A stretch of 62,144 nt of DNA from a phage: the sequence record PX021331.1, one strand, 5' to 3'. Each line of letters starts with the position of its first letter. The stretch's first letter is position 1. Below the pieces are notes generated by a model. The model searched no databases, had not been told where the DNA came from, and saw only the letters and a program-made list of their open reading frames with translations. The translations under genes and the position numbers were made by a program. Shown here in pieces: positions 30,017 through 59,848 of the stretch.

Positions 30017-30048
30017 CAAAAAGGGGGCTTCGGCCCCCTTACTTTTAG
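30017..30048. terminator. bidirectional terminator at the convergence of the two arms (stem AAGGGGGC/GCCCCCTT, TTCG loop)
   Basis: GC stem flanked by A-run on one side and T-rich run on the other, between the last plus gene (stop 30010) and the last minus gene (stop 30045). Confidence 0.6.
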
Positions 30049-30380
30049 AGTTTTGGTATTCCCTGAAACTGTTGTAAACCTGGAGCATAAGTGCGTTCCT
30101 GTCTTAGCTCAACCAACGTTTCCCGCCAGTCGTAACCTTCCAGATCACACTCACCCGCGCAACGTATTCGCCCACCAGCTACAGCCATCCACTCTTCGTC
30201 GTAATCGGTTGGACCCGTTTCAAAGATGTAGATCTTACCGTCGGGGTCAATAACAACGTAGTCCGCCCACTCTTCCACAGGTACAGGGAAACCGTACAGC
30301 TCTACGAACTGCATGTGCGGGCCTTCAACGTTAGGAATGTCATCGTCGTGACGTTCTTTATCCATACCAAGATATAACAT
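30045..30380 (-). CDS. hypothetical protein
   Basis: Internal ATG of track ORF 30045..30395 with GGGAG 8 nt upstream; acidic 111-aa protein. Confidence 0.5.
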   Translation of the reverse strand: MLYLGMDKERHDDDIPNVEGPHMQFVELYGFPVPVEEWADYVVIDPDGKIYIFETGPTDYDEEWMAVAGGRIRCAGECDLEGYDWRETLVELRQERTYAPGLQQFQGIPKL

Positions 30381-30382
30381 AG

Positions 30383-30646
30383 TCACTCCCACCATGTGAA
30401 AATGAAAGTTTCGTCTCTACGGTTCTTAACCGTTTCAACAAACGTATCCAACGGGATATTATGCTCACGCAAAAAGTTCTTGCGGAACTCAACTTGCAGA
30501 GCCCATTGGCGCTGGTACTCTTTGAAATCTTCTTCCGTCCCCAATGGGTCACGGAACGCACGTTGGCGGGCATAATGGGCTTTACCCATAAACTCCTCGA
30601 TCCCAATGTATTCTTTAAACGGTACTATAAGGACTTTACGTTGCAT
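30383..30646 (-). CDS. hypothetical protein
   Basis: ATG 6 nt inside the GTG-initiated track ORF 30383..30652, with GGAG upstream. Confidence 0.55.
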   Translation of the reverse strand: MQRKVLIVPFKEYIGIEEFMGKAHYARQRAFRDPLGTEEDFKEYQRQWALQVEFRKNFLREHNIPLDTFVETVKNRRDETFIFTWWE

Positions 30647-30648
30647 GT

Positions 30649-30825
30649 TCACTCCAGATACGTGTCGTAAATAGTAAGAGTTTGGTGTTCTTCGTGATCT
30701 CGTTTACTATAGATGACAATGTCACCGTGTTCTTCAACGAATGCAAGAAGCTCTTCCATCGTGTTTATTTCAATTGGTTCTTCCCTTTGCCAATTGGATG
30801 CCTGTTTTAACGTAAATACAGCCAT
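30649..30825 (-). CDS. small hypothetical protein (58 aa), not in ORF track
   Basis: ATG preceded by GGAGAACTAAT; encodes MAVFTLKQASNWQREEPIEINTMEELLAFVEEHGDIVIYSKRDHEEHQTLTIYDTYLE; stop overlaps the next start. Confidence 0.4.
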   Translation of the reverse strand: MAVFTLKQASNWQREEPIEINTMEELLAFVEEHGDIVIYSKRDHEEHQTLTIYDTYLE

Positions 30826-37437: not shown

Positions 37438-38853
37438 TTAGTCATTCAGATAATTAATTACTTCTGCTGCGTTATTAATACTAAACGCAGTCTTACGCAT
37501 CATGCAAGGGCCGCACGTACCGCAATGCAGATCGCCGTTCTTGTAACAGCTCCACGTATGGGCCAACGGTGCTCCCTGCTCGAGCCCCAGGGCCACGATC
37601 TCGTGCTTCATTAAGTTACCCACGGGCATGAGCACCCGCACGCGCTTGCCGTCGCCTACAGCGAACGGTAATATCGCATTAAAGCGGTTAACGAACTCGG
37701 GTTCGTTATCGGGGTAGGCGCCCGCTTCTTCCAGGTTGTTACCCAGCACGATATAATCAAACCCTTTCGCTTCTGCGTAGGCAGTGGCGACAGACAGCAT
37801 AACAAGGTTACGAGCAGGAACCCACTCATGAGCGAACTCCGCACCGGCTTCACCTCCGGCGATGGTGGAATTGTGGTCAAAGAGGGGACTATCTGTTGGA
37901 TCGTAAATGGGAATCGGGAAAAGGACAAGCGGCACCCCCATCTCTTCAGAGATTTCTTTAATCGCTTTCAGCTCGTGCTCTTCAGCACGGCAACCATATT
38001 GGAAGTTAATCAGAGTGACGTCCATACCCTGATTCTTACACACCTGCGCGGCAACGGTGCTATCCAGCCCACCACTGGCGACGACCAGTGCGCGAGGTGC
38101 GCGGGCTTCACCGTGACTAAAAAGGCTGACGCGATGGTTGCTGGAGCTGTACTTGTCGATCAGTTGACAGGTGTAAGGCTCTTGCATGTAAGGAACGCAG
38201 TTATGCGGAAGCATACTGCGCTCACTTGCTAACCACATACCTGAGTCGTTCTTACCAATCCAGATCGGACGGTAGTTGCACGCAGTGAAGATCACACCTT
38301 TAAAGGATTCATGCGTCGCCAGGATTGCGTAGCTACCTTTCAGCTCTTCAATAACACCGATAAAGATCCCGTAGGCTTCGTCCAGTGTGCGGATACCGTC
38401 TTCCGGTTCGCGCTTGGCTAACATCTCAACGATCGCAGAGCTATCAATAGCCGTTTCCAGTTTATTGGTGCGCAGCTCTTTATCATTGGCGATAGTACCG
38501 TTATGCACGATTGCCCACTTGCCCATGACATACGGTTGCTGATCGTACCCGTGTTTTTCTTTCACCCATTCGGTAGTCGGTTCAGCGCGGGCATTACCGA
38601 TCATTGTGAGCTCTTCACGGTGGATGGTTGCGTGCGTAACGATGTCGTTAATGGTTTCGTTATGCAGGTAAGAACCAGCTTTTTCCGTTGTCATGCACTG
38701 ATATGACACGTAAGGCGCTGGCAGATGGGTGATACGCGCACCAATACCATCGCGTCCGCGGTTGACAGCGTTGCGAACCATGTCGTCAACCATAACACGC
38801 AGGCGTTCTTTATCTACAACGCCGTTAGTAACAAATCCGAAGATTGAACACAT
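37438..38853 (-). CDS. queC: glutamine amidotransferase-QueC fusion (Gat-QueC)
   Basis: 471 aa; N-terminal MCSIFG (class II Ntn glutaminase, Cys2), central PP-loop ALVVASGGLDSTV, C-terminal zinc cluster CYKNGDLHCGTCGPC as in QueC. Confidence 0.8.
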   Translation of the reverse strand: MCSIFGFVTNGVVDKERLRVMVDDMVRNAVNRGRDGIGARITHLPAPYVSYQCMTTEKAGSYLHNETINDIVTHATIHREELTMIGNARAEPTTEWVKEKHGYDQQPYVMGKWAIVHNGTIANDKELRTNKLETAIDSSAIVEMLAKREPEDGIRTLDEAYGIFIGVIEELKGSYAILATHESFKGVIFTACNYRPIWIGKNDSGMWLASERSMLPHNCVPYMQEPYTCQLIDKYSSSNHRVSLFSHGEARAPRALVVASGGLDSTVAAQVCKNQGMDVTLINFQYGCRAEEHELKAIKEISEEMGVPLVLFPIPIYDPTDSPLFDHNSTIAGGEAGAEFAHEWVPARNLVMLSVATAYAEAKGFDYIVLGNNLEEAGAYPDNEPEFVNRFNAILPFAVGDGKRVRVLMPVGNLMKHEIVALGLEQGAPLAHTWSCYKNGDLHCGTCGPCMMRKTAFSINNAAEVINYLND

Positions 38854-39182
38854 TAGTTAATTCCTTCATCTGGTGAATACGGACGCCACTGAACAATTGC
38901 ATTGCGCGGCGGTGTCACAGTGGGGTTGTAGACCAGTTTAACACGGGCGTCGTTGACATTGCTATTACGGATCGTGGAACCATCCTGCAAGCGCAGATCA
39001 ACCGTGTAACCGGCGCGAAGCACTTTGAGCATCGCAAGAATCGACTCTTCCTGGCCCAGGATATCTTTCTTGTGTACTACGCATACAGAGCCAAGGAATA
39101 AGCGCTTGCGCTCGACATCAGTAAACAGCTCTTCAACGATCTCAATTGATCGTTTAGGGCATGGAGAGAACGGCGTATACAT
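38853..39182 (-). CDS. hypothetical protein between queE and gat-queC
   Basis: 110 aa from internal ATG with AGAGGTGG upstream; start abuts queE stop. Confidence 0.5.
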   Translation of the reverse strand: MYTPFSPCPKRSIEIVEELFTDVERKRLFLGSVCVVHKKDILGQEESILAMLKVLRAGYTVDLRLQDGSTIRNSNVNDARVKLVYNPTVTPPRNAIVQWRPYSPDEGIN

Positions 39183-39883
39183 TATTCCACCTCTAAGTAT
39201 TTGTGAACCTGCAATTGCACAATATACCCGTGGAACTGGCATGAAGCAACAACCGCCTGAATATTTCGTTTGTTAGCCGCCGGGTCTTGCTCGTCCATTG
39301 GTTGCAGGTAAATCGGGCCACGGTAATGAGCGGGCGGACGGGCGATGTGTGGTGTAGCGCGGTGCATAAGCGCCTGCAACGGTAAACCGTCTTCCTCGCG
39401 CATGTTGCCGGCCTGTAGCACGTATTTAAAGGCGTTTGCGCGGGCTGCTACGCTGGGATGGATCTTAGCTGCTTTTGGACTGCAAACGACGGTCGCTTCA
39501 TGGTGAAGCTCCAGCGGGATCTGCATGGTGCCGTTCGTTTCAATTTGCACCTTCAACCCTTTAATATCGATCAACCAGTTAATCAGTTGAACGACTTCAG
39601 GTTGACGGAACGGCTCGCCACCAGTGATAACGATCAAGCTCGTTTTCGCTTCACCTGTTACGCGCACAACTTCGTCCCAGATTTGATAGTGCATCATGCG
39701 CTGGCGGCCTTTAGTGTATTCCGTATCACAACCAGGACACTGAAGGTTGCAGCCAGCTAAACGGATGAACACGGCGGGGTGACCACAGTACGGGCCTTCA
39801 CCTTGGATCGTGTGGAAAATGGAATGAACATCCAAATGACGGTCACGATCAATCTTCTCAGGTTCCTGAGTATTTAGTTTCAT
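39182..39883 (-). CDS. queE: 7-carboxy-7-deazaguanine synthase (radical SAM, QueE-like)
   Basis: 233 aa from internal ATG; CNLQCPGC (CxxxCxxC) cluster and ITGGEPF motif. Confidence 0.75.
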   Translation of the reverse strand: MKLNTQEPEKIDRDRHLDVHSIFHTIQGEGPYCGHPAVFIRLAGCNLQCPGCDTEYTKGRQRMMHYQIWDEVVRVTGEAKTSLIVITGGEPFRQPEVVQLINWLIDIKGLKVQIETNGTMQIPLELHHEATVVCSPKAAKIHPSVAARANAFKYVLQAGNMREEDGLPLQALMHRATPHIARPPAHYRGPIYLQPMDEQDPAANKRNIQAVVASCQFHGYIVQLQVHKYLEVE

Positions 39884-39960
39884 AGTGTGTTCTCTGTGAA
39901 TGATGCGTAATGCTTGAAGGTATGACAAATGAAGGATAGCGGACATATGAACCTCGGGGT

Positions 39961-50826: not shown

Positions 50827-51215
50827 GGGCAGAACCTCACAGGTTGTGGTAAAGCGAGTTCGGTCTTAGTACCGTACAGATGAGAGTGCATTTCACGCAA
50901 CATGTTCACCTGATCGAGGGTAAGATCATTCCGTTGCATCAATTCAGCCATCAGGTGGCAAATAGATGTCTTAAGGTACTCATCCGAATGGGATGGACCG
51001 AATTGATAGAGCCTTACAGAACCGACGCGCATATGTGCCGGCATTTTGTTATTCCAGATCATCTTGACCACATTAAACAGGTGGCCAGTCCGCATCTCGC
51101 TTGGACGTAAATGATCACCGCCATTGACTGCGGCCATCTTCCAACGGTAGTTCGGATCAACCTGAACTCCCATCTGCTTTGCCAGTTGGCAAGCTACTGT
51201 CAATTCTCTGCTCAT
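50805..51215 (-). CDS. hypothetical protein
   Basis: 136-aa ORF. Confidence 0.55.
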   Translation of the reverse strand: MSRELTVACQLAKQMGVQVDPNYRWKMAAVNGGDHLRPSEMRTGHLFNVVKMIWNNKMPAHMRVGSVRLYQFGPSHSDEYLKTSICHLMAELMQRNDLTLDQVNMLREMHSHLYGTKTELALPQPVRFCPWQLNVK

Positions 51216-51421
51216 AACTTTCTCCCAGCATATTCTTCAACGACTTTAGTAATGGCCTTGCATACATCTGAATTTAACCAGTATGCTTCAGCAAAGTCAG
51301 GGTCTACGTCTGAAGACTGGTCCGCTGCTGCGCGGTAGCCTTCAAGGAATGCTTTCTTGGACGTGTCTGCAAGCGCCAACAGACCCGCTTCATAAATCTT
51401 TTGTTCCTGTTCTTTAGACAT
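51212..51421 (-). CDS. hypothetical small protein
   Basis: 69 aa from internal ATG with GGAG upstream, just after a terminator-like hairpin. Confidence 0.5.
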   Translation of the reverse strand: MSKEQEQKIYEAGLLALADTSKKAFLEGYRAAADQSSDVDPDFAEAYWLNSDVCKAITKVVEEYAGRKL

Positions 51422-51430
51422 TTCTCGCTC

Positions 51431-51471
51431 CAAATAAAAAGGGTGTACAACTATATTAGCTGCACACCCTT
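51431..51471 (-). terminator. terminator-like hairpin (AAGGGTGT.CA / TG.ACACCCTT) with U-run on minus strand
   Basis: Imperfect 10-bp stem followed on the minus strand by TTTTATTTGGAG. Confidence 0.4.
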
Positions 51472-51490
51472 TATACTGCAACGTTGACCA

Positions 51491-51814
51491 TTAAACGTCG
51501 GACTTATACTGCCTCGCGAATACCCTAGCAGCTTCCAGAACGGGTTCACCGTGATGATCCCACATATCTAAAGGTGAGTGCCCGCAGTTATAACCAGGAT
51601 CGTGACCCTGCATGTTATCTCCACAGCAACAGACACCCGTTTCAATGTGTGCATGGTCCAGCACGTAAAGCAGGTCACACAGCTTCTCGATTGCTTCGTC
51701 AGCGCGGGCTTGCTCTACCTCTGCTTTGTGCTCCAGCACCATTGCAACGACCATAAGGCTAACAACGAACATAATTAACCCGAAGATTATCCACTCTGCT
51801 TGTGAGCCTATCAT
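51491..51814 (-). CDS. membrane-anchored Cys/His-rich protein
   Basis: 107 aa; N-terminal TM (WIIFGLIMFVVSLMVVAMVL) then HAHIETGVCCCGDNMQGHDPGYNCGHSPLDMWDHHG. Confidence 0.55.
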   Translation of the reverse strand: MIGSQAEWIIFGLIMFVVSLMVVAMVLEHKAEVEQARADEAIEKLCDLLYVLDHAHIETGVCCCGDNMQGHDPGYNCGHSPLDMWDHHGEPVLEAARVFARQYKSDV

Positions 51815-52143
51815 TTCTGCACCTTAACGCGCACATGGCGACCAATTAGTTGGGTGAAGCAACCATTGGGAATAGCTTTACAGCTCGCATTGTGCCGCAC
51901 TGTAAGGCGTGCAAGGTCGCGCTCGAATATAACGTGGCGCAGTTGCGTCGCAAGGCGCTCATAATAGCCTGCGTTGCCTACGTCGTTGTCGCTGATCGCT
52001 GTAGCGTAGGTAAGCAGGTCATTCAGATCGTGCGGACGCTTTACACTAAGGTCAATCATCGCGACGTCTGGATGTGGGAATTCGTTAGCAGGAAAAACCG
52101 CCTCATAGACGATCCGCACTGCTGCGACTGTAACACGGTTCAT
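51811..52143 (-). CDS. hypothetical protein
   Basis: 110-aa ORF with AGGAG upstream. Confidence 0.55.
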   Translation of the reverse strand: MNRVTVAAVRIVYEAVFPANEFPHPDVAMIDLSVKRPHDLNDLLTYATAISDNDVGNAGYYERLATQLRHVIFERDLARLTVRHNASCKAIPNGCFTQLIGRHVRVKVQK

Positions 52144-52180
52144 ACTGCACTCCTGGGATTAAATTTAGTTCCGAGTCCTA

Positions 52181-52208
52181 TTGCAAACGGTCCAATAGTG
52201 TTTATACT
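52181..52208 (+). promoter_or_regulatory. candidate sigma70 promoter (TTGCAA-16-TATACT) with overlapping inverted repeat CTATTG...CAATAG
   Basis: Hexamers ~35 nt upstream of the plus-strand ORF at 52243; a 6-bp inverted repeat overlaps the -35. Confidence 0.35.
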
Positions 52209-52242
52209 GTAATTATACAAACAAGGCACAGAGGATTACAAA

Positions 52243-52530
52243 ATGAACACACTGGCAATTAACATCGACAACATCAAACGCGCGATGACTAAAGACGAAC
52301 AGTATTCCGACACCGACGCCTACGGTAACTACAAGATCACCTTCGGTGCATACGGTCGTCAGATTACTGTTACTGCAACCGCACTGACACAACCTACTGT
52401 AGAGCAACTGGAAGACGGTGACTTCCCTGTACGCTACACCGCACCAATGGATCCAGACTTTAATACTACCGACTATGACGAAATGTTTGACTTCGTTGCA
52501 GACGTGTTCATGTCGTACTACCAGGATTAA
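52243..52530 (+). CDS. acidic small protein encoded opposite to the surrounding arm (moron-like)
   Basis: 95 aa; SD GAGGA; about 17 Asp/Glu versus 6 Lys/Arg; own promoter-like element and a terminator 14 nt after the stop. Confidence 0.6.
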   Translation: MNTLAINIDNIKRAMTKDEQYSDTDAYGNYKITFGAYGRQITVTATALTQPTVEQLEDGDFPVRYTAPMDPDFNTTDYDEMFDFVADVFMSYYQD

Positions 52531-52543
52531 GCCACTGCATAAC

Positions 52544-52568
52544 AAAAAGGGCCCAGCGGGCCCTTTTT
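52544..52568. terminator. bidirectional rho-independent terminator (stem GGGCCC/GGGCCC, A5 and T5 flanks)
   Basis: AAAAAGGGCCCAGCGGGCCCTTTTT between the plus-strand acidic gene and the minus-strand primase-helicase stop. Confidence 0.7.
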
Positions 52569-55108
52569 CATGAGTTTTCAAGGAGTTCGTTGACCTTGTC
52601 TATTGCTACAAGGTAAGCAGCACCCCTGAAAGGTTTGTGCTCATCGTCACAATAAGGCGGTTGACTTAACTCCGCACTCCCCATAGGTTTCAACGCGCCG
52701 AGGCTACATAGTGCCCTCAGTGTATCGTCAAACGCCTTCACGTTGTCCTTAGTTGCACGGAACGCGGAAAGGTTGACCGTGTTTGTACGGATATCGCTAT
52801 ACGTATATACAAAGTTATCCGTAAGAAGTTTATATCGTTTCTGATCTCTTCCACTGCGTTTTTCAAACAAAGTGTTAATCTTGGCCAGAACGAGTTTCTC
52901 ACGTTTCACGCCATCGATACCAATTTGCCCTTCCTTGTGCTTTTTGATAATACGTTCGTTACTGGTATTAATGAACGTGGATGCCCATTCAAAGTGCTTC
53001 ATAGTCACTTCAGGGTTGTAGCAGTTATCCGCAACCGCCAACAGACATGCAATCTTTAATGTCTTAAACGCGCGACGGCTATGCGCTTGTCGAATAACTT
53101 CATCCTTCTCTTCGTTACCGTCTACACCATTTAACAGCGCATTAATTTCTACGTCAAGGCTGTCATACCAGTCCATTGCATCCGGCTGCATACGTACGAT
53201 GCAAGGTGCTGTCCCTGCGTGCAGCTTAACAGCCTGCGTGATTAACTCGCCCAGCCCACGCAATAAAGGCTCAGGCATTTGCTGGTTCGCGTTCTTGTTC
53301 TCCAGTGGCCGCTGTACACTACAATCCCAAATAGTAAGGCGCGACACAAAACCGCTTGACAGCATGTCTTCTGTCATTGTCGAATAAAAATCATCCGGTG
53401 TACATTCACCCGCGAAACTGTAAGCAGCAACGCGCCCACCAGCGTGGTTATTCTCTTTGTTGGAATACTTAAAACCATCCGCACGAGAATAGAAGTCACT
53501 GAGGTTGTACATCATCAACATCGCGTGTGCAATCTCAGGGGCCTTACCGTATCCAGTTGCAAGACCTTTAAATAACTTACTCACTTCATCCATGTAGTGA
53601 ATAAAGGATAAGCGTTCCATAGACCCATCTGGTACAGTTACGGACTTCATTAATGCTTGCTCGGAACCATAACTAGCAGTATCGATAAAACTACCAGCAC
53701 CGAACAACTGAGTACCGTCTTTCCCACCAAACATTTCAACAGTTCTTAACACTTTCTGAATGTTAGAACGGAACGCGTCTTTACCCAGCCCGGATCGTGC
53801 AACAAGAACAAAGTAATTGTTTAGGCCGCCATTGGTATGGGTGTTCCACGCTTTACCACATATACCGCTCAGGAGTGACAGCGCAGACAGTATTGCAATG
53901 TCCTTCACCGGACGCAAGCTAATGCTGAACATGTAACGTGCAAGCTCACCAGCAGCACCAGGCGGCCAGTCTAGCCCACCGTCGTCCTCGATTGTATAGT
54001 TACCGTCAGTGGCTAAGAATTCGCTCGGTGCTGGAGCAGGTAGCGACGCTTCATACTGCTTTGCTTTCATCTCTAACGTGCGTTGGATGTTAGCCTTCAT
54101 AATGGCTTCACGTTCCATGTTGGACACTTGCTCGTCCATACGGCGACGTTTAATCATACGGTCTAAATGGTAGGGCTTCTTGATCTTGTCGTCATGCTTG
54201 CGACGGTCATCAAAGTAGCGGTCACCCATCTTAGACATATAGAACATACGTCTAACCTGGAAATTATACTTCGTATAGAATGCCAGGATGTCCACCAGCG
54301 CGAACTCTGCTTCCGACTGCGACGGGAACCCGCGCTCACCTAATGTGTAGTTGACATCCGCTACATCAAAGCGCCCATCCCATAGCTGACGGAATAACGC
54401 ACCGTTTGCAGCTTCGCACGCTTTTACATACAGGTCTTCATCGCGTAGGGAATACGGGTCATTCTCATATTCCTCTTCGGTAAGTTCCACCATGTCAAAG
54501 GATTCAAGCAACGACACACCGTTCATCTGGCTGCGCATGTTGTACAGCAGCTCCGCGATGTATGCTTCGCTTTCGTGCCCAGGCGCACCGGACAGCGTTA
54601 AAGGGGAAATATCCCAATGCTGACCAGTACAAATCATAAACCGGTATTGTGTGTAGATTTCAACCCCGTCGCGACGCTTGCCTTCTTGTGGTAAAGCGTA
54701 GATCCACAAGTGCAGACCGTTACCGCTACGGGAAACTTCAGTATAACTATGGAAGGATTTTACTATCTGCTCGTAACGAGCACCAGCTTTCTGAATTGTT
54801 TCAGCATCCCACTCCTGTTTGATATCCATATCAATACAGCAGAACGGGTCAGACGGCATAAGGTAGAACCCCGCCATTAACGTGTGCCCGTTCATATTAT
54901 AATATTTGATGCACTGCTGGACGCTGTCAAAGTCCATAAGCAGATGCAAGTTGGAAGGATGCTTATCGTTGCCGTCTTTACGAAGTGGAACCATGTTACC
55001 AACTTCATTATCCCAGACATACGGTTGTTTTTCGGAAGACCCGTTATTCTTAAATCCGCAGACGGCCCACTGTGGCACATCTTTTATCGCTTGCGGGAAC
55101 TTGTCCAT
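52568..55108 (-). CDS. primase-helicase (AEP prim-pol domain + SF3-type helicase)
   Basis: 846 aa; AEP-like motifs CCIDMDIK (DxD) and SRSGNGLHLWIYA (SGxGxH); central Walker A VLVARSGLGKD. Confidence 0.75.
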   Translation of the reverse strand: MDKFPQAIKDVPQWAVCGFKNNGSSEKQPYVWDNEVGNMVPLRKDGNDKHPSNLHLLMDFDSVQQCIKYYNMNGHTLMAGFYLMPSDPFCCIDMDIKQEWDAETIQKAGARYEQIVKSFHSYTEVSRSGNGLHLWIYALPQEGKRRDGVEIYTQYRFMICTGQHWDISPLTLSGAPGHESEAYIAELLYNMRSQMNGVSLLESFDMVELTEEEYENDPYSLRDEDLYVKACEAANGALFRQLWDGRFDVADVNYTLGERGFPSQSEAEFALVDILAFYTKYNFQVRRMFYMSKMGDRYFDDRRKHDDKIKKPYHLDRMIKRRRMDEQVSNMEREAIMKANIQRTLEMKAKQYEASLPAPAPSEFLATDGNYTIEDDGGLDWPPGAAGELARYMFSISLRPVKDIAILSALSLLSGICGKAWNTHTNGGLNNYFVLVARSGLGKDAFRSNIQKVLRTVEMFGGKDGTQLFGAGSFIDTASYGSEQALMKSVTVPDGSMERLSFIHYMDEVSKLFKGLATGYGKAPEIAHAMLMMYNLSDFYSRADGFKYSNKENNHAGGRVAAYSFAGECTPDDFYSTMTEDMLSSGFVSRLTIWDCSVQRPLENKNANQQMPEPLLRGLGELITQAVKLHAGTAPCIVRMQPDAMDWYDSLDVEINALLNGVDGNEEKDEVIRQAHSRRAFKTLKIACLLAVADNCYNPEVTMKHFEWASTFINTSNERIIKKHKEGQIGIDGVKREKLVLAKINTLFEKRSGRDQKRYKLLTDNFVYTYSDIRTNTVNLSAFRATKDNVKAFDDTLRALCSLGALKPMGSAELSQPPYCDDEHKPFRGAAYLVAIDKVNELLENS

Positions 55109-55739: not shown

Positions 55740-55949
55740 TTACCTGAAAGGTTTATCTAACTGGCTAGCGGGAACCATGCGGATTACAGTATCATAATCC
55801 TCATAGCGGGATGGATCAAAGAGAGGCATTGCATCTGCCGCTTGATCCTGGTTGTCGAAGACCTGGAGCACCTTGCGCACCTTGCACAACGTACCGTCAA
55901 ACTCTTCGTCAAAGAACTGCTCTACTTCGCAGATGCAGAACTTTTCCAT
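55740..55949 (-). CDS. small acidic protein
   Basis: 69 aa, rich in Asp/Glu/Phe (EVEQFFDEEFDG). Confidence 0.5.
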   Translation of the reverse strand: MEKFCICEVEQFFDEEFDGTLCKVRKVLQVFDNQDQAADAMPLFDPSRYEDYDTVIRMVPASQLDKPFR

Positions 55950-58897: not shown

Positions 58898-59156
58898 AAA
58901 CTGCGATCACTAGACGATTCGCAGTTTTGCATTTGGCGGTATGCTGATCGCAGTTTTTGCAATGATCGCAGTTTGCTGATCGCAGTTTGCTAGTTTTTGC
59001 ATTTCTTGCATTGCGTTGCATTTTATGAACGAAATGCAGGTTTGGGAACCGCGAATCCCGCGGCTGGTGCGGGTTTTAGCGCGATGCCACCTCAGGCAAT
59101 GCGTGGCTATGGTACGTTAACCTCTAAAATCTTAAACCGCGATCAGATCGCAGTTT
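58898..59156. repeat. iteron cluster: 11-mer GATCGCAGTTT (4 direct perfect, 1 inverted perfect, 1 imperfect) plus TTGCAT repeats
   Basis: Copies at ~58946, 58964, 58978, 59146 (direct), 58898 (inverted, AAACTGCGATC), 58917 (GATTCGCAGTTT); TTGCAT repeated at least 5 times at 58926-59024; each 11-mer contains a GATC. Confidence 0.6.
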
Positions 59157-59157
59157 C

Positions 59158-59300
59158 ATTAAAAACATAAAAAAATAAAATACAAACAATACAACTACTT
59201 ACTAACTACTACTTTTACCTTTATTTTCAAGCACTTACAGCACTAATTTTTTGCATTTCATCAAAGAAATACAAGCAAAATACACCAATGCAAGAATTTT
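59158..59300. other. AT-rich tract next to the iterons (possible DNA unwinding element)
   Basis: ~140 nt dominated by A/T (ATTAAAAACATAAAAAAATAAAATACAAACAATACAACTACTTACTAACTACTAC...). Confidence 0.45.
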
Positions 59301-59308
59301 GACATGTC

Positions 59309-59350
59309 CGCGCGTGCATGGATGCGCGTAGCGCCTGCGTGCGTGTGCGC
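59309..59350. other. GC-rich alternating purine-pyrimidine tracts (Z-DNA-prone)
   Basis: CGCGCGTGCATG and TGCGTGCGTGTGCGC are strictly alternating Py/Pu runs of 12 and 15 nt. Confidence 0.35.
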
Positions 59351-59414
59351 CCGCGTTATTAGCACAAAAATTGCAGCCTGTAAACGATTCTTTTTCGGAT
59401 AGCGTTTCGGTGTA

Positions 59415-59623
59415 GCGAAATGGATTTTTGTGGAGGCAAAACGATTCTATTTTGGAGTGAAAATCGGAAAACGGTTCGGGAAAACGCCGTTTATCAGCGT
59501 TTGCCAGGGCTAAAAGGGTCGCAAAGGTGGGCGAAAATCGCGAAAATAGGCCGGGTTTTCGGGGTGTACAGGCCGCGCTGTAGGCTCGCCAGTAGGGTAG
59601 CCAGGGTATGGGGGTGAAAATCG
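59415..59623. repeat. array of ~8 short A-tract motifs G(N)GAAAA(T)CG
   Basis: GCGAAATGG, GGCAAAACG, GTGAAAATCGG, GGAAAACGG, GGGAAAACG, GCGAAAATCG, GCGAAAATAGG, GTGAAAATCG over ~210 nt; consistent with bent DNA or a protein-binding array. Confidence 0.45.
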
Positions 59624-59792
59624 CTTAAACTCGCGCATATTGGCCCACCAGCGGGGTCGCTGTAAGCCGATATAAGCCGGCGTTATTTGGGTCTGTATAT
59701 TAGTATAGAGTGAAGGTTGGGCGTGTTATAGGGCGATACAGCGAGGATTTACCGTGGTCAAGCTGGTGCGGTAGGTGTTTTGCGGGTGCTAT

Positions 59793-59826
59793 AAACGATA
59801 AAAACCCGTTGGATATCAACGGGTTA
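59793..59826 (-). terminator. rho-independent terminator of the right-end early unit (stem AACCCGTTG/CAACGGGTT)
   Basis: 9-bp stem with GATATC loop followed on the minus strand by TTTTATCG, 25-50 nt after the stop at 59849. Confidence 0.55.
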
Positions 59827-59848
59827 TGGGGTGTATAATGCAGTTGAA

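Follow-up and report, generated by a model that had tools for sequence, protein, structure and literature searches.

Lambdoid-type morons are single genes that are bracketed by a promoter and an intrinsic terminator and lie in opposite orientation within an operon-rich arm of a phage genome. A gene with this layout is present in PX021331.1, a phage sequence of 62,144 nucleotides (~62 kb), the whole of which was analyzed and is called the window here. The structural genes of the window occupy the plus strand (about 1–30 kb) and its replication and nucleotide-metabolism genes the minus strand (about 30–61.5 kb); within this minus-strand arm, a plus-strand gene encodes an acidic protein of 95 residues. 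Unlike morons, the acidic cassette keeps a fixed, syntenic position in at least two genera and in several metagenomic lineages. The family to which its product is assigned below, PHROG 17131, is already catalogued and uncharacterised; within it, the window protein represents a longer and diverged form. The gene goes without mention in the genome papers on phages 9g and Vid5 and in the AbiA, TAC and retron-defence papers on Queuovirinae.

A second group of described systems consists of small acidic inhibitors and DNA mimics. T7 Ocr, T7 Gp1.2, T7 Gp2, PBS2 Ugi, T4 Arn, plasmid PsiB and AcrIIA11 have no sequence relation to the window protein, and their structural scores against it are at the background level for small sandwiches. 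Our comparisons indicate that the acidic gene is a vertically inherited, old and lineage-specific part of Queuovirinae-type phages, and tentatively suggest that its product acts by contacting another protein.

The acidic open reading frame is a conserved gene

The protein (MNTLAINIDNIKRAM...FMSYYQD; Table 1) contains 13 Asp, 4 Glu, 3 Lys and 3 Arg, giving a net charge of −11 and an isoelectric point (pI) of 4.05, in agreement with the original prediction of a 95-residue plus-strand product with a net charge of about −11. A search of 5.8 billion proteins returned 28 homologues with 62–94% identity, all 95–97 aa long except one 114-aa entry and one 64-aa fragment. The close homologues are negatively charged without exception (−4 to −12). 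Across ten loci fetched from close relatives, the median pairwise ratio of nonsynonymous to synonymous substitution (dN/dS) was 0.18, with synonymous sites near saturation. A 122-aa open reading frame (ORF) on the antisense strand (52213..52581) is open in the window and one relative only, and carries one to four stops in 8 of the 10 loci. These results show that the acidic ORF is a real protein-coding gene under purifying selection. Against a loss of coding capacity in relatives, which the original prediction had named as counter-evidence, homologue length is kept and dN/dS is low. Diversifying selection in the variable middle segment was considered and rejected: the higher pN of that segment comes with saturated synonymous sites and an omega that stays at about 0.18.

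With 75 ORFs crudely called across the window, the acidic protein has the lowest pI and ranks third in per-residue acidity. Several neighbouring small ORFs are comparably acidic (Table 1), so acidity alone is weak functional evidence. In the deposited genome of Klebsiella phage vB_Kpn_K9PH25C2 (L001:5153-5653; OY979394.1, CAK6604329.1), the gene is annotated with a start 71 codons too early. This 166-aa annotation overlaps the divergent 'protease' gene, and the conserved start gives 95 aa (L001:5366-5653).

A vertically inherited cassette

The nearest isolates at the locus are vB_Kpn_K9PH25C2, which is classified in the Queuovirinae, Klebsiella phage vB_Kpn2-P2 and Escherichia phage Ec1-ASingh, all with about 81–84% DNA identity. 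The order of primase gene (minus), acidic gene (plus) and 110-aa gene (minus) is identical in all ten close loci. It recurs in the 84-aa and 87-aa branches of the family (metagenomic loci L017 and L018) and in the 76-aa branch, represented by Nonagvirus JenK1. Identity to the window proteins within the close clade is 80–85% for the primase, 62–86% for the acidic protein and 71–86% for the 110-aa neighbour. The same three values are 61%, 36% and 46% for L017, 48%, 45% and 46% for L018, and 51%, 36% and 47% for JenK1. From these alignments, the three-gene block appears to diverge together, the small protein somewhat faster. The acidic gene has a GC content of 0.469, compared with 0.474 for the primase gene and 0.50 for the arm.

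Profile searching of 1.84 billion representative proteins recovered five clusters of full-length relatives (84–95 aa); three other matches at E ≤ 0.001 were short and partial and lay inside long proteins. An extended family search brought together 45 proteins. Wherever a long contig was recorded or fetched, the carriers are phage-sized contigs of about 50–65 kb from the same lineage, and neither search turned up another genomic context for the family. The acidic gene thus differs from morons in its normal composition and single context as well as in its fixed position, and the comparisons support vertical inheritance.

The original prediction had taken the autonomous layout as typical of an acquired gene and had named presence or absence among relatives as a check. 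The self-contained layout stands. Acquisition does not, given the fixed synteny, the parallel divergence and the ordinary GC content; no close locus (10 of 10 have it) and none of the 84-, 87- and 76-aa branches lacks the gene, whose presence is thus not sporadic. A recent moron, meaning a horizontally captured promoter–gene–terminator cassette, would account for the promoter and terminator motifs that the gene has to itself, and for the different genes that other genera carry at this position (described below), which imply that replacement occurred sometime in deeper history. For this lineage, however, such a recent capture is contradicted by the shared site, the divergence in step with the neighbours, the composition and the lack of any other context in the profile searches.

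Some metagenomic relatives carry frameshifted or split copies. One (P0050) is a frameshifted JenK1 type with an altered C-terminus. In another case the 87-aa type is split into pieces of 41 and 55 aa (P0048 plus P0052), for both of which the longest recorded contig measures 49,940 bp and is presumably the same. These copies are natural pseudogenes or else products of faulty assembly. If real, they suggest that the gene is dispensable, pointing to an accessory rather than an essential role.

A terminator shared with the primase gene

The acidic gene and the primase gene converge on the hairpin AAAAAGGGCCC-AGC-GGGCCCTTTTT, which has a perfect 11-bp stem on both strands, with an A tract on one side and a T tract on the other. 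The predicted structure folds at −19.4 kcal/mol (z = −3.0). Hairpin and primase stop codon (52568–52570) overlap by one base, the last of the former being the first of the latter. The hairpin is found in every relative, with compensatory changes from GGGCCC/GGGCCC to GGGCGC/GCGCCC in several of them. It is also kept in four other genera, in phages JenK1, Skure, Vid5 and PSTCR7. By its sequence, the element qualifies as the perfect bidirectional intrinsic terminator that had been predicted, and the compensatory changes agree with that assignment.

Two predicted, interlocked promoters

The predicted σ70-like promoter of the acidic gene, P(+), is present as TTGCAA, a 16-nt spacer and TATACT, and matches the consensus at 9 of 12 positions in our scan. 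Transcription from it would start near 52215. The scan found 23 promoter-like sites in the window against 18.4 expected in shuffles, which is chance level; because such sites occur at chance frequency, the match alone proves nothing. P(+) is instead supported by conservation. Its hexamers are invariant or near-invariant among the ten close relatives while the spacer varies, and they are also kept in relatives whose primase is only 48–61% identical.

A second σ70-like promoter, P(−), scoring 10 of 12 (TTGTAA, an 18-nt spacer and TATAAT), lies on the opposite strand and is directed toward the 110-aa gene. Its −10 element is kept as TATAAT or TATACT in all relatives and its −35 element as TTGT(A/G)(A/T); the latter overlaps the Shine-Dalgarno (SD) sequence and the start of the acidic gene. 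P(−) probably drives the downstream minus-strand operon starting at 52143, of which the 110-aa gene would be the first gene. Since a strong terminator ends the primase operon upstream, a promoter would be needed downstream of the primase, and this is the sole intergenic space. The −10 boxes of the two promoters lie on opposite strands with 3 bp between them; the expected transcription starts therefore cross. P(+) and P(−) are probably never occupied by RNA polymerase simultaneously.

In the ten close relatives, 99 bp invariably separate the acidic gene from the 110-aa gene, and the spacing of the overlapping promoters is fixed at 98–99 bp in most of the family. Pairwise identity of this intergenic region is 82%, compared with 56% at the third codon positions of the acidic gene, and the region is as strongly constrained as second codon positions. 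Five blocks are conserved in the close clade. These are the SD of the minus-strand gene; CTATTGCAAACGGTC, an invariant 15-nt block that includes the −35 hexamer of P(+) and reaches beyond it; TATA(C/A)T, the −10 element of P(+); A(T/G)TATA, which on the minus strand reads TATA(A/C)T and is the −10 element of P(−); and GG(A/G)GGATTACAAAATG. The last is invariant in the clade, and its 3′ 14 nt (AGGATTACAAAATG) are identical in Seuratvirus Skure. Positions invariant across the family, JenK1 included, are TATTGCA, TATA.T, A.TATA and GG..ACAAAATG. By this phylogenetic footprinting, the regulatory motifs of both promoters are probably real. Neither the invariant 15-mer nor the SD block has a second occurrence in the window that would mark a repeated operator.

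The inverted repeat CTATTG-N9-CAATAG, which had been predicted to overlap the promoter, does lie over the −35 element of P(+) in the window, but it is kept in only 5 of the 10 close relatives. In the other five the right arm is replaced; the −35/−10 spacer exists in several versions, two of them common, and the repeat is lost as a result. It is probably incidental and not functional.

Predicted fold and family

An AlphaFold2 model built with the family alignment reached a pLDDT of 90.1 and a pTM of 0.78. Its elements are a helix (residues 8–17), two strands (30–36 and 39–47), a short helix (53–58), two further strands (63–67 and 70–75) and a C-terminal helix (78–93), in the order α-β-β-α-β-β-α. 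The window protein is therefore confidently predicted to be a compact acidic α/β sandwich. A model of the 76-aa JenK1 type (pLDDT 85) shows a helix, a meander sheet and a C-terminal helix. The top structural matches are generic two-layer sandwiches (RWD-like FANCL, Spc25, Csm1, Mediator Med14/17, YkuJ and 1ylx), and the matches also include small protein-binding inhibitors (TriTu immunity protein, AcrIIA11, PsiB, MmoD and T7 Gp1.2). Foldseek against BFVD gave one direct homologue only. Searches of Pfam, NCBIfam, PADLOC and PDB sequences with the protein and the family profile returned nothing meaningful and no membership in a characterised family.

Conserved residues are mostly those of the hydrophobic and aromatic core, together with Glu19 and the DYDEMF sequence at the start of the last helix. 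The basic residues of the sheet, Lys31, Arg39 and Arg64, are not conserved across the family. This lack of conserved basic residues, with the negative charge, would argue against DNA binding and for a protein–protein role.

The 76-aa JenK1 protein (AKA61097.1) belongs to PHROG 17131 (E = 2e-55). The window protein itself matches phrog_17131 weakly (E = 8e-5, 24 bits, residues 10–91), and its family profile recovers a JenK1-type protein (P0045) at E = 1e-14. This profile link, the alignment and the identical synteny confirm that the window protein is a member. It shares with the JenK1 protein the N-terminal helix, the first hairpin and the C-terminal DYDEMF helix, as well as genomic position, orientation, promoter (CCTATTGCA...TATAGT in JenK1) and terminator. 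In contrast to JenK1, the window clade has an insertion of about 20 residues, a short helix and a strand at roughly residues 47–66, and identity between the two is about 35%.

The position after the primase in other genera

In three further genera, a small single gene on the opposite strand directly follows the orthologous primase gene, a position that we call the slot. The slot proteins are 74 aa in Seuratvirus Skure (QBZ71693.1, PHROG 22269, L012:5364-5588), 73 aa in Vidquintavirus Vid5 and 59 aa in Craquatrovirus PSTCR7. All are acidic, and each gene has a bidirectional terminator and a TTGCA-type or similar promoter. None of them is significantly related to the window family by hhalign (the Seuratvirus family reaches a probability of 0.2%), and the Vid5 and PSTCR7 proteins are not significantly related to the Seuratvirus family either. 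The genes downstream of the slot differ in Skure and Vid5. In Pseudomonas phage Iggy and Septimatrevirus DLP_1, with primases 27–28% identical, the slot is missing. The post-primase slot thus appears to be old and conserved, with a cargo that changed at deep nodes.

The Seuratvirus slot family profile matches the AP2 domain of WRI1 (E = 3.8e-6) and, more weakly, ERF096 and AtERF1, and the match of the protein to Pfam AP2 (E = 0.006) falls short of the curated cutoff. These matches indicate that the protein, which is annotated as hypothetical, is a stand-alone AP2-type domain; it ends in an acidic, aromatic C-terminal tail. Its gene resembles the acidic gene of the window in being small, acidic in product and convergent with the primase gene, in sharing a bidirectional terminator, in having its own promoter and in a nearly identical translation-initiation sequence (GGAGGATTACAAAATG). 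The window protein differs in lacking an AP2 match, and neither it nor its family matches AP2 (PF00847) in Pfam even at E ≤ 10. An AP2-like character of the window family was considered by eye, with JenK1 VGDFSTPDYDEMF and Vid5 FFTDYDAAVSAAYD resembling AP2 LGTFDTAEEAARAYD; hhalign comparisons were not significant, and the idea is unsupported.

The C-termini of the otherwise unrelated slot proteins combine acidic and aromatic residues (SYYQD, ETYY, DWWC, DDYYFN and LEYFNN); that of the window protein is encoded at 52510–52527. These C-termini may be a shared docking motif or a compositional coincidence.

Possible functions of the acidic protein

The reading that we favour, plausible though held with rather less than even confidence, is that of an early, independently transcribed, lineage-conserved acidic protein that binds or modulates another protein, with its promoter interlocked with that of the downstream operon. 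Host RNA polymerase would transcribe the acidic gene alone, and early, from the conserved σ70-type promoter, and plus-strand transcription would end at the hairpin where the convergent primase operon terminates as well. The encoded protein would bind its partner stoichiometrically. Its target could be a host enzyme, defence factor or RNA polymerase or, less likely, a phage replication protein. The protein probably neither binds DNA nor catalyzes a reaction, and DNA mimicry would be one possible version of stoichiometric protein binding. The mutual exclusion expected of P(+) and P(−) implies a second, cis-acting role, in which the cassette may tune the timing or level of the downstream replication and recombination operon.

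Several points weigh against this reading. Acidity is also found in other small ORFs of the phage. The strict position beside the primase gene and the promoter pair fit a regulatory or replication role equally well, and the Seuratvirus gene in the same slot appears to encode an AP2-type DNA-binding domain. The frameshifted copies, for their part, may be assembly errors.

A possible though somewhat unlikely alternative is a local transcription regulator that acts on the divergent promoter pair through DNA, RNA polymerase or sigma, serving autoregulation or operon timing, and that is the functional equivalent of the Seuratvirus AP2-domain protein. The conserved overlap of the divergent promoters at their nearly constant spacing, the constraint on the intergenic region and the extension of the invariant 15-nt block beyond the −35 hexamer would all be expected of a regulated region, but that block does not recur elsewhere in the window and no operator-like repeat or palindrome is conserved there, the sole inverted repeat being lost in half of the relatives. 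The AP2 matches of the Seuratvirus counterpart and the minimal JenK1-type fold of helix, β-sheet and helix favour a regulator as well. Against this stand the hhalign result for the Seuratvirus family, the net charge and pI, the lack of a conserved basic residue on the sheet and the lack of sequence similarity to AP2, HTH or RHH families.

Combining the slot with an inhibitor role gives a further proposal, which we regard as unlikely. The slot would be an ancient, fixed 'expression slot' whose promoter, ribosome-binding site and terminator are kept while the cargo is exchanged between genera, being an α/β protein in the clade and Nonagvirus, AP2 in Seuratvirus and unrelated acidic proteins in Vid5 and PSTCR7. 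The window cargo would then be a new type of early inhibitor against a host defence or enzyme, possibly with a new DNA-mimic fold, and, through the divergent promoter, its expression would be inversely coupled to that of the replication and recombination operon.

That the protein is specifically a DNA mimic with an anti-restriction or anti-defence function, its surface carboxylates imitating DNA phosphates and titrating a type I restriction–modification, BREX or RecBCD-like enzyme, seems quite unlikely. Its charge density (18% Asp plus Glu) and pI of about 4.05 are within the range of Ugi-like mimics, and all homologues remain negatively charged. As judged from sequence and predicted secondary structure, the C-terminal helix exposes an acidic side (Asp77, Asp79, Glu80, Asp83 and Asp87). 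Among the acidic residues, however, only Glu19 is invariant and Asp79 nearly so, while the others drift across the wider family, and neither sequence nor fold relates the protein to Ocr, ArdA, Ugi, Arn or any other solved mimic. The middle segment (residues 48–76) is the most variable, which counts in favour of a mimic, but selection is purifying in all regions and diversifying in none. A σ70-like promoter of its own is compatible with immediate early expression. The phage, on the other hand, already has a 7-deazaguanine DNA-modification pathway for evading restriction (PMC5567051).

We consider it decidedly unlikely that the protein is a replication accessory factor working with the adjacent primase/helicase as a loader, inhibitor or modulator of origin firing, and kept by co-regulation or co-inheritance. 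The gene always adjoins the 846/847-aa primase gene, even where the primase is 48% identical, and shares its terminator. A small opposite-strand gene follows the primase gene in five genera, but the slot proteins are unrelated between genera while the primase stays orthologous, and Pseudomonas relatives with the same primase family are without the slot. The locus has no iterons or AT-rich origin-like repeats, and the apparent frameshifted copies also argue against such a role. Weakest of all is recent capture of the cassette as a moron, which is highly improbable for the reasons given above.

The replication arm and neighbouring features

The window encodes a GATase-QueC fusion and a radical-SAM QueE-like protein (Table 1), so the phage carries a 7-deazaguanine DNA-modification pathway, machinery that is typical of the Queuovirinae-type group. 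The pathway serves restriction evasion (PMC5567051). The minus-strand arm begins near 30.0 kb and reaches at least 61.5 kb. It therefore spans roughly 31 kb rather than the 28 kb first estimated, and the acidic gene is, as claimed, its sole supported plus-strand gene; the other long plus-strand ORFs are without PHROG support, and their minus-strand partners have it. No Rfam families or tRNAs were found anywhere in the window.

Table 1. Features of the acidic-gene locus and of the replication arm in the window
Feature	Coordinates	Strand	Description	Basis or remark
Acidic protein coding sequence	52243..52530	+	95 aa, stop codon included	ORF, homologues, dN/dS
Promoter P(+), −35	52181-52186	+	TTGCAA	scan 9/12; 16-nt spacer
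Promoter P(+), −10	52203-52208	+	TATACT	scan 9/12
Promoter P(−), −35	52241-52236	−	TTGTAA	scan 10/12; 18-nt spacer
Promoter P(−), −10	52217-52212	−	TATAAT	scan 10/12
SD of acidic gene	52231..52235	+	GAGGA, 7 nt before ATG	sequence
Inverted repeat over P(+) −35	52178..52198		CTATTG (52178-83)-N9-CAATAG (52193-98)	window sequence
Bidirectional intrinsic terminator	52544..52568		hairpin with 11-bp stem	common to acidic gene (+) and primase gene (−)
Primase (convergent neighbour)	52568..55108	−	846 aa, AEP-type primase plus DUF3987 helicase-like domain	PHROG 3022; synteny anchor
110-aa gene (divergent neighbour)	51811..52143	−	110 aa, labelled 'protease'	PHROG 17339
SD of 110-aa gene	52150-52154	−	AGGAG	
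GATase-QueC fusion	37438-38853	−		window gene
Radical-SAM QueE-like gene	39182-39946	−		window gene
Small acidic ORF	30045-30395	−	116 aa, net charge −15	
Small acidic ORF	30649-30825	−	58 aa, net charge −9	
Small acidic ORF	51491-51814	−	107 aa, net charge −11	
Small acidic ORF	55740-55949	−	69 aa, net charge −7	

A replication origin at the acidic-gene locus was considered and rejected; there are no iterons, tandem repeats or AT-rich origin-like repeats nearby, and the GC skew is a strand-arm effect only. Elsewhere in the arm, tandem repeats at 58942–59022 and 59160–59180 (TGCTGATCGCAGTT in 3.3 copies and TTGCATTGC in 2.8 copies) and an A-rich run fall in a stretch at about 59022–59848 that has no ORF of at least 90 aa. 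Promoter-like and terminator-like sites lie around 59803–59839. The stretch near 59 kb could be an origin or a regulatory region.

The part of the arm that truly varies (window 51212–51481) lies downstream of the acidic gene, at a distance of two to three genes. The corresponding segments in relatives (L003:2963-3169, L008:2962-3177, L009:2064-3244 and L006:2454-3233) hold a Lar_restr_allev (PF14354) gene and/or a gene for a 259–294-aa protein, and the window has an acidic ORF of 69–89 aa instead. This stretch looks like a genuine accessory hot spot.

Significance

The picture shifts from a captured moron to a conserved, core-like cassette in coliphages and Klebsiella phages that are 7-deazaguanine-modified, and phage collections make use of some of them. 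The analysis defines a small, well-folded family (PHROG 17131 and its longer variants) that is easy to test, and it brings to light an erroneous start annotation in a deposited genome. For now, the gene is a conserved hypothetical one whose regulatory signals are tidy, a useful finding but one that will not surprise a specialist. If the protein were a true inhibitor of a host factor, it would represent a new fold among phage counter-defence and host-takeover proteins. If it were instead a true regulator, the overlapping divergent promoters would serve as a small model system for an early-to-middle switch, in a family of phages whose transcription programme has hardly been studied. Of the leads that emerge, the interlocked promoters and the exchangeable slot are of greatest interest.

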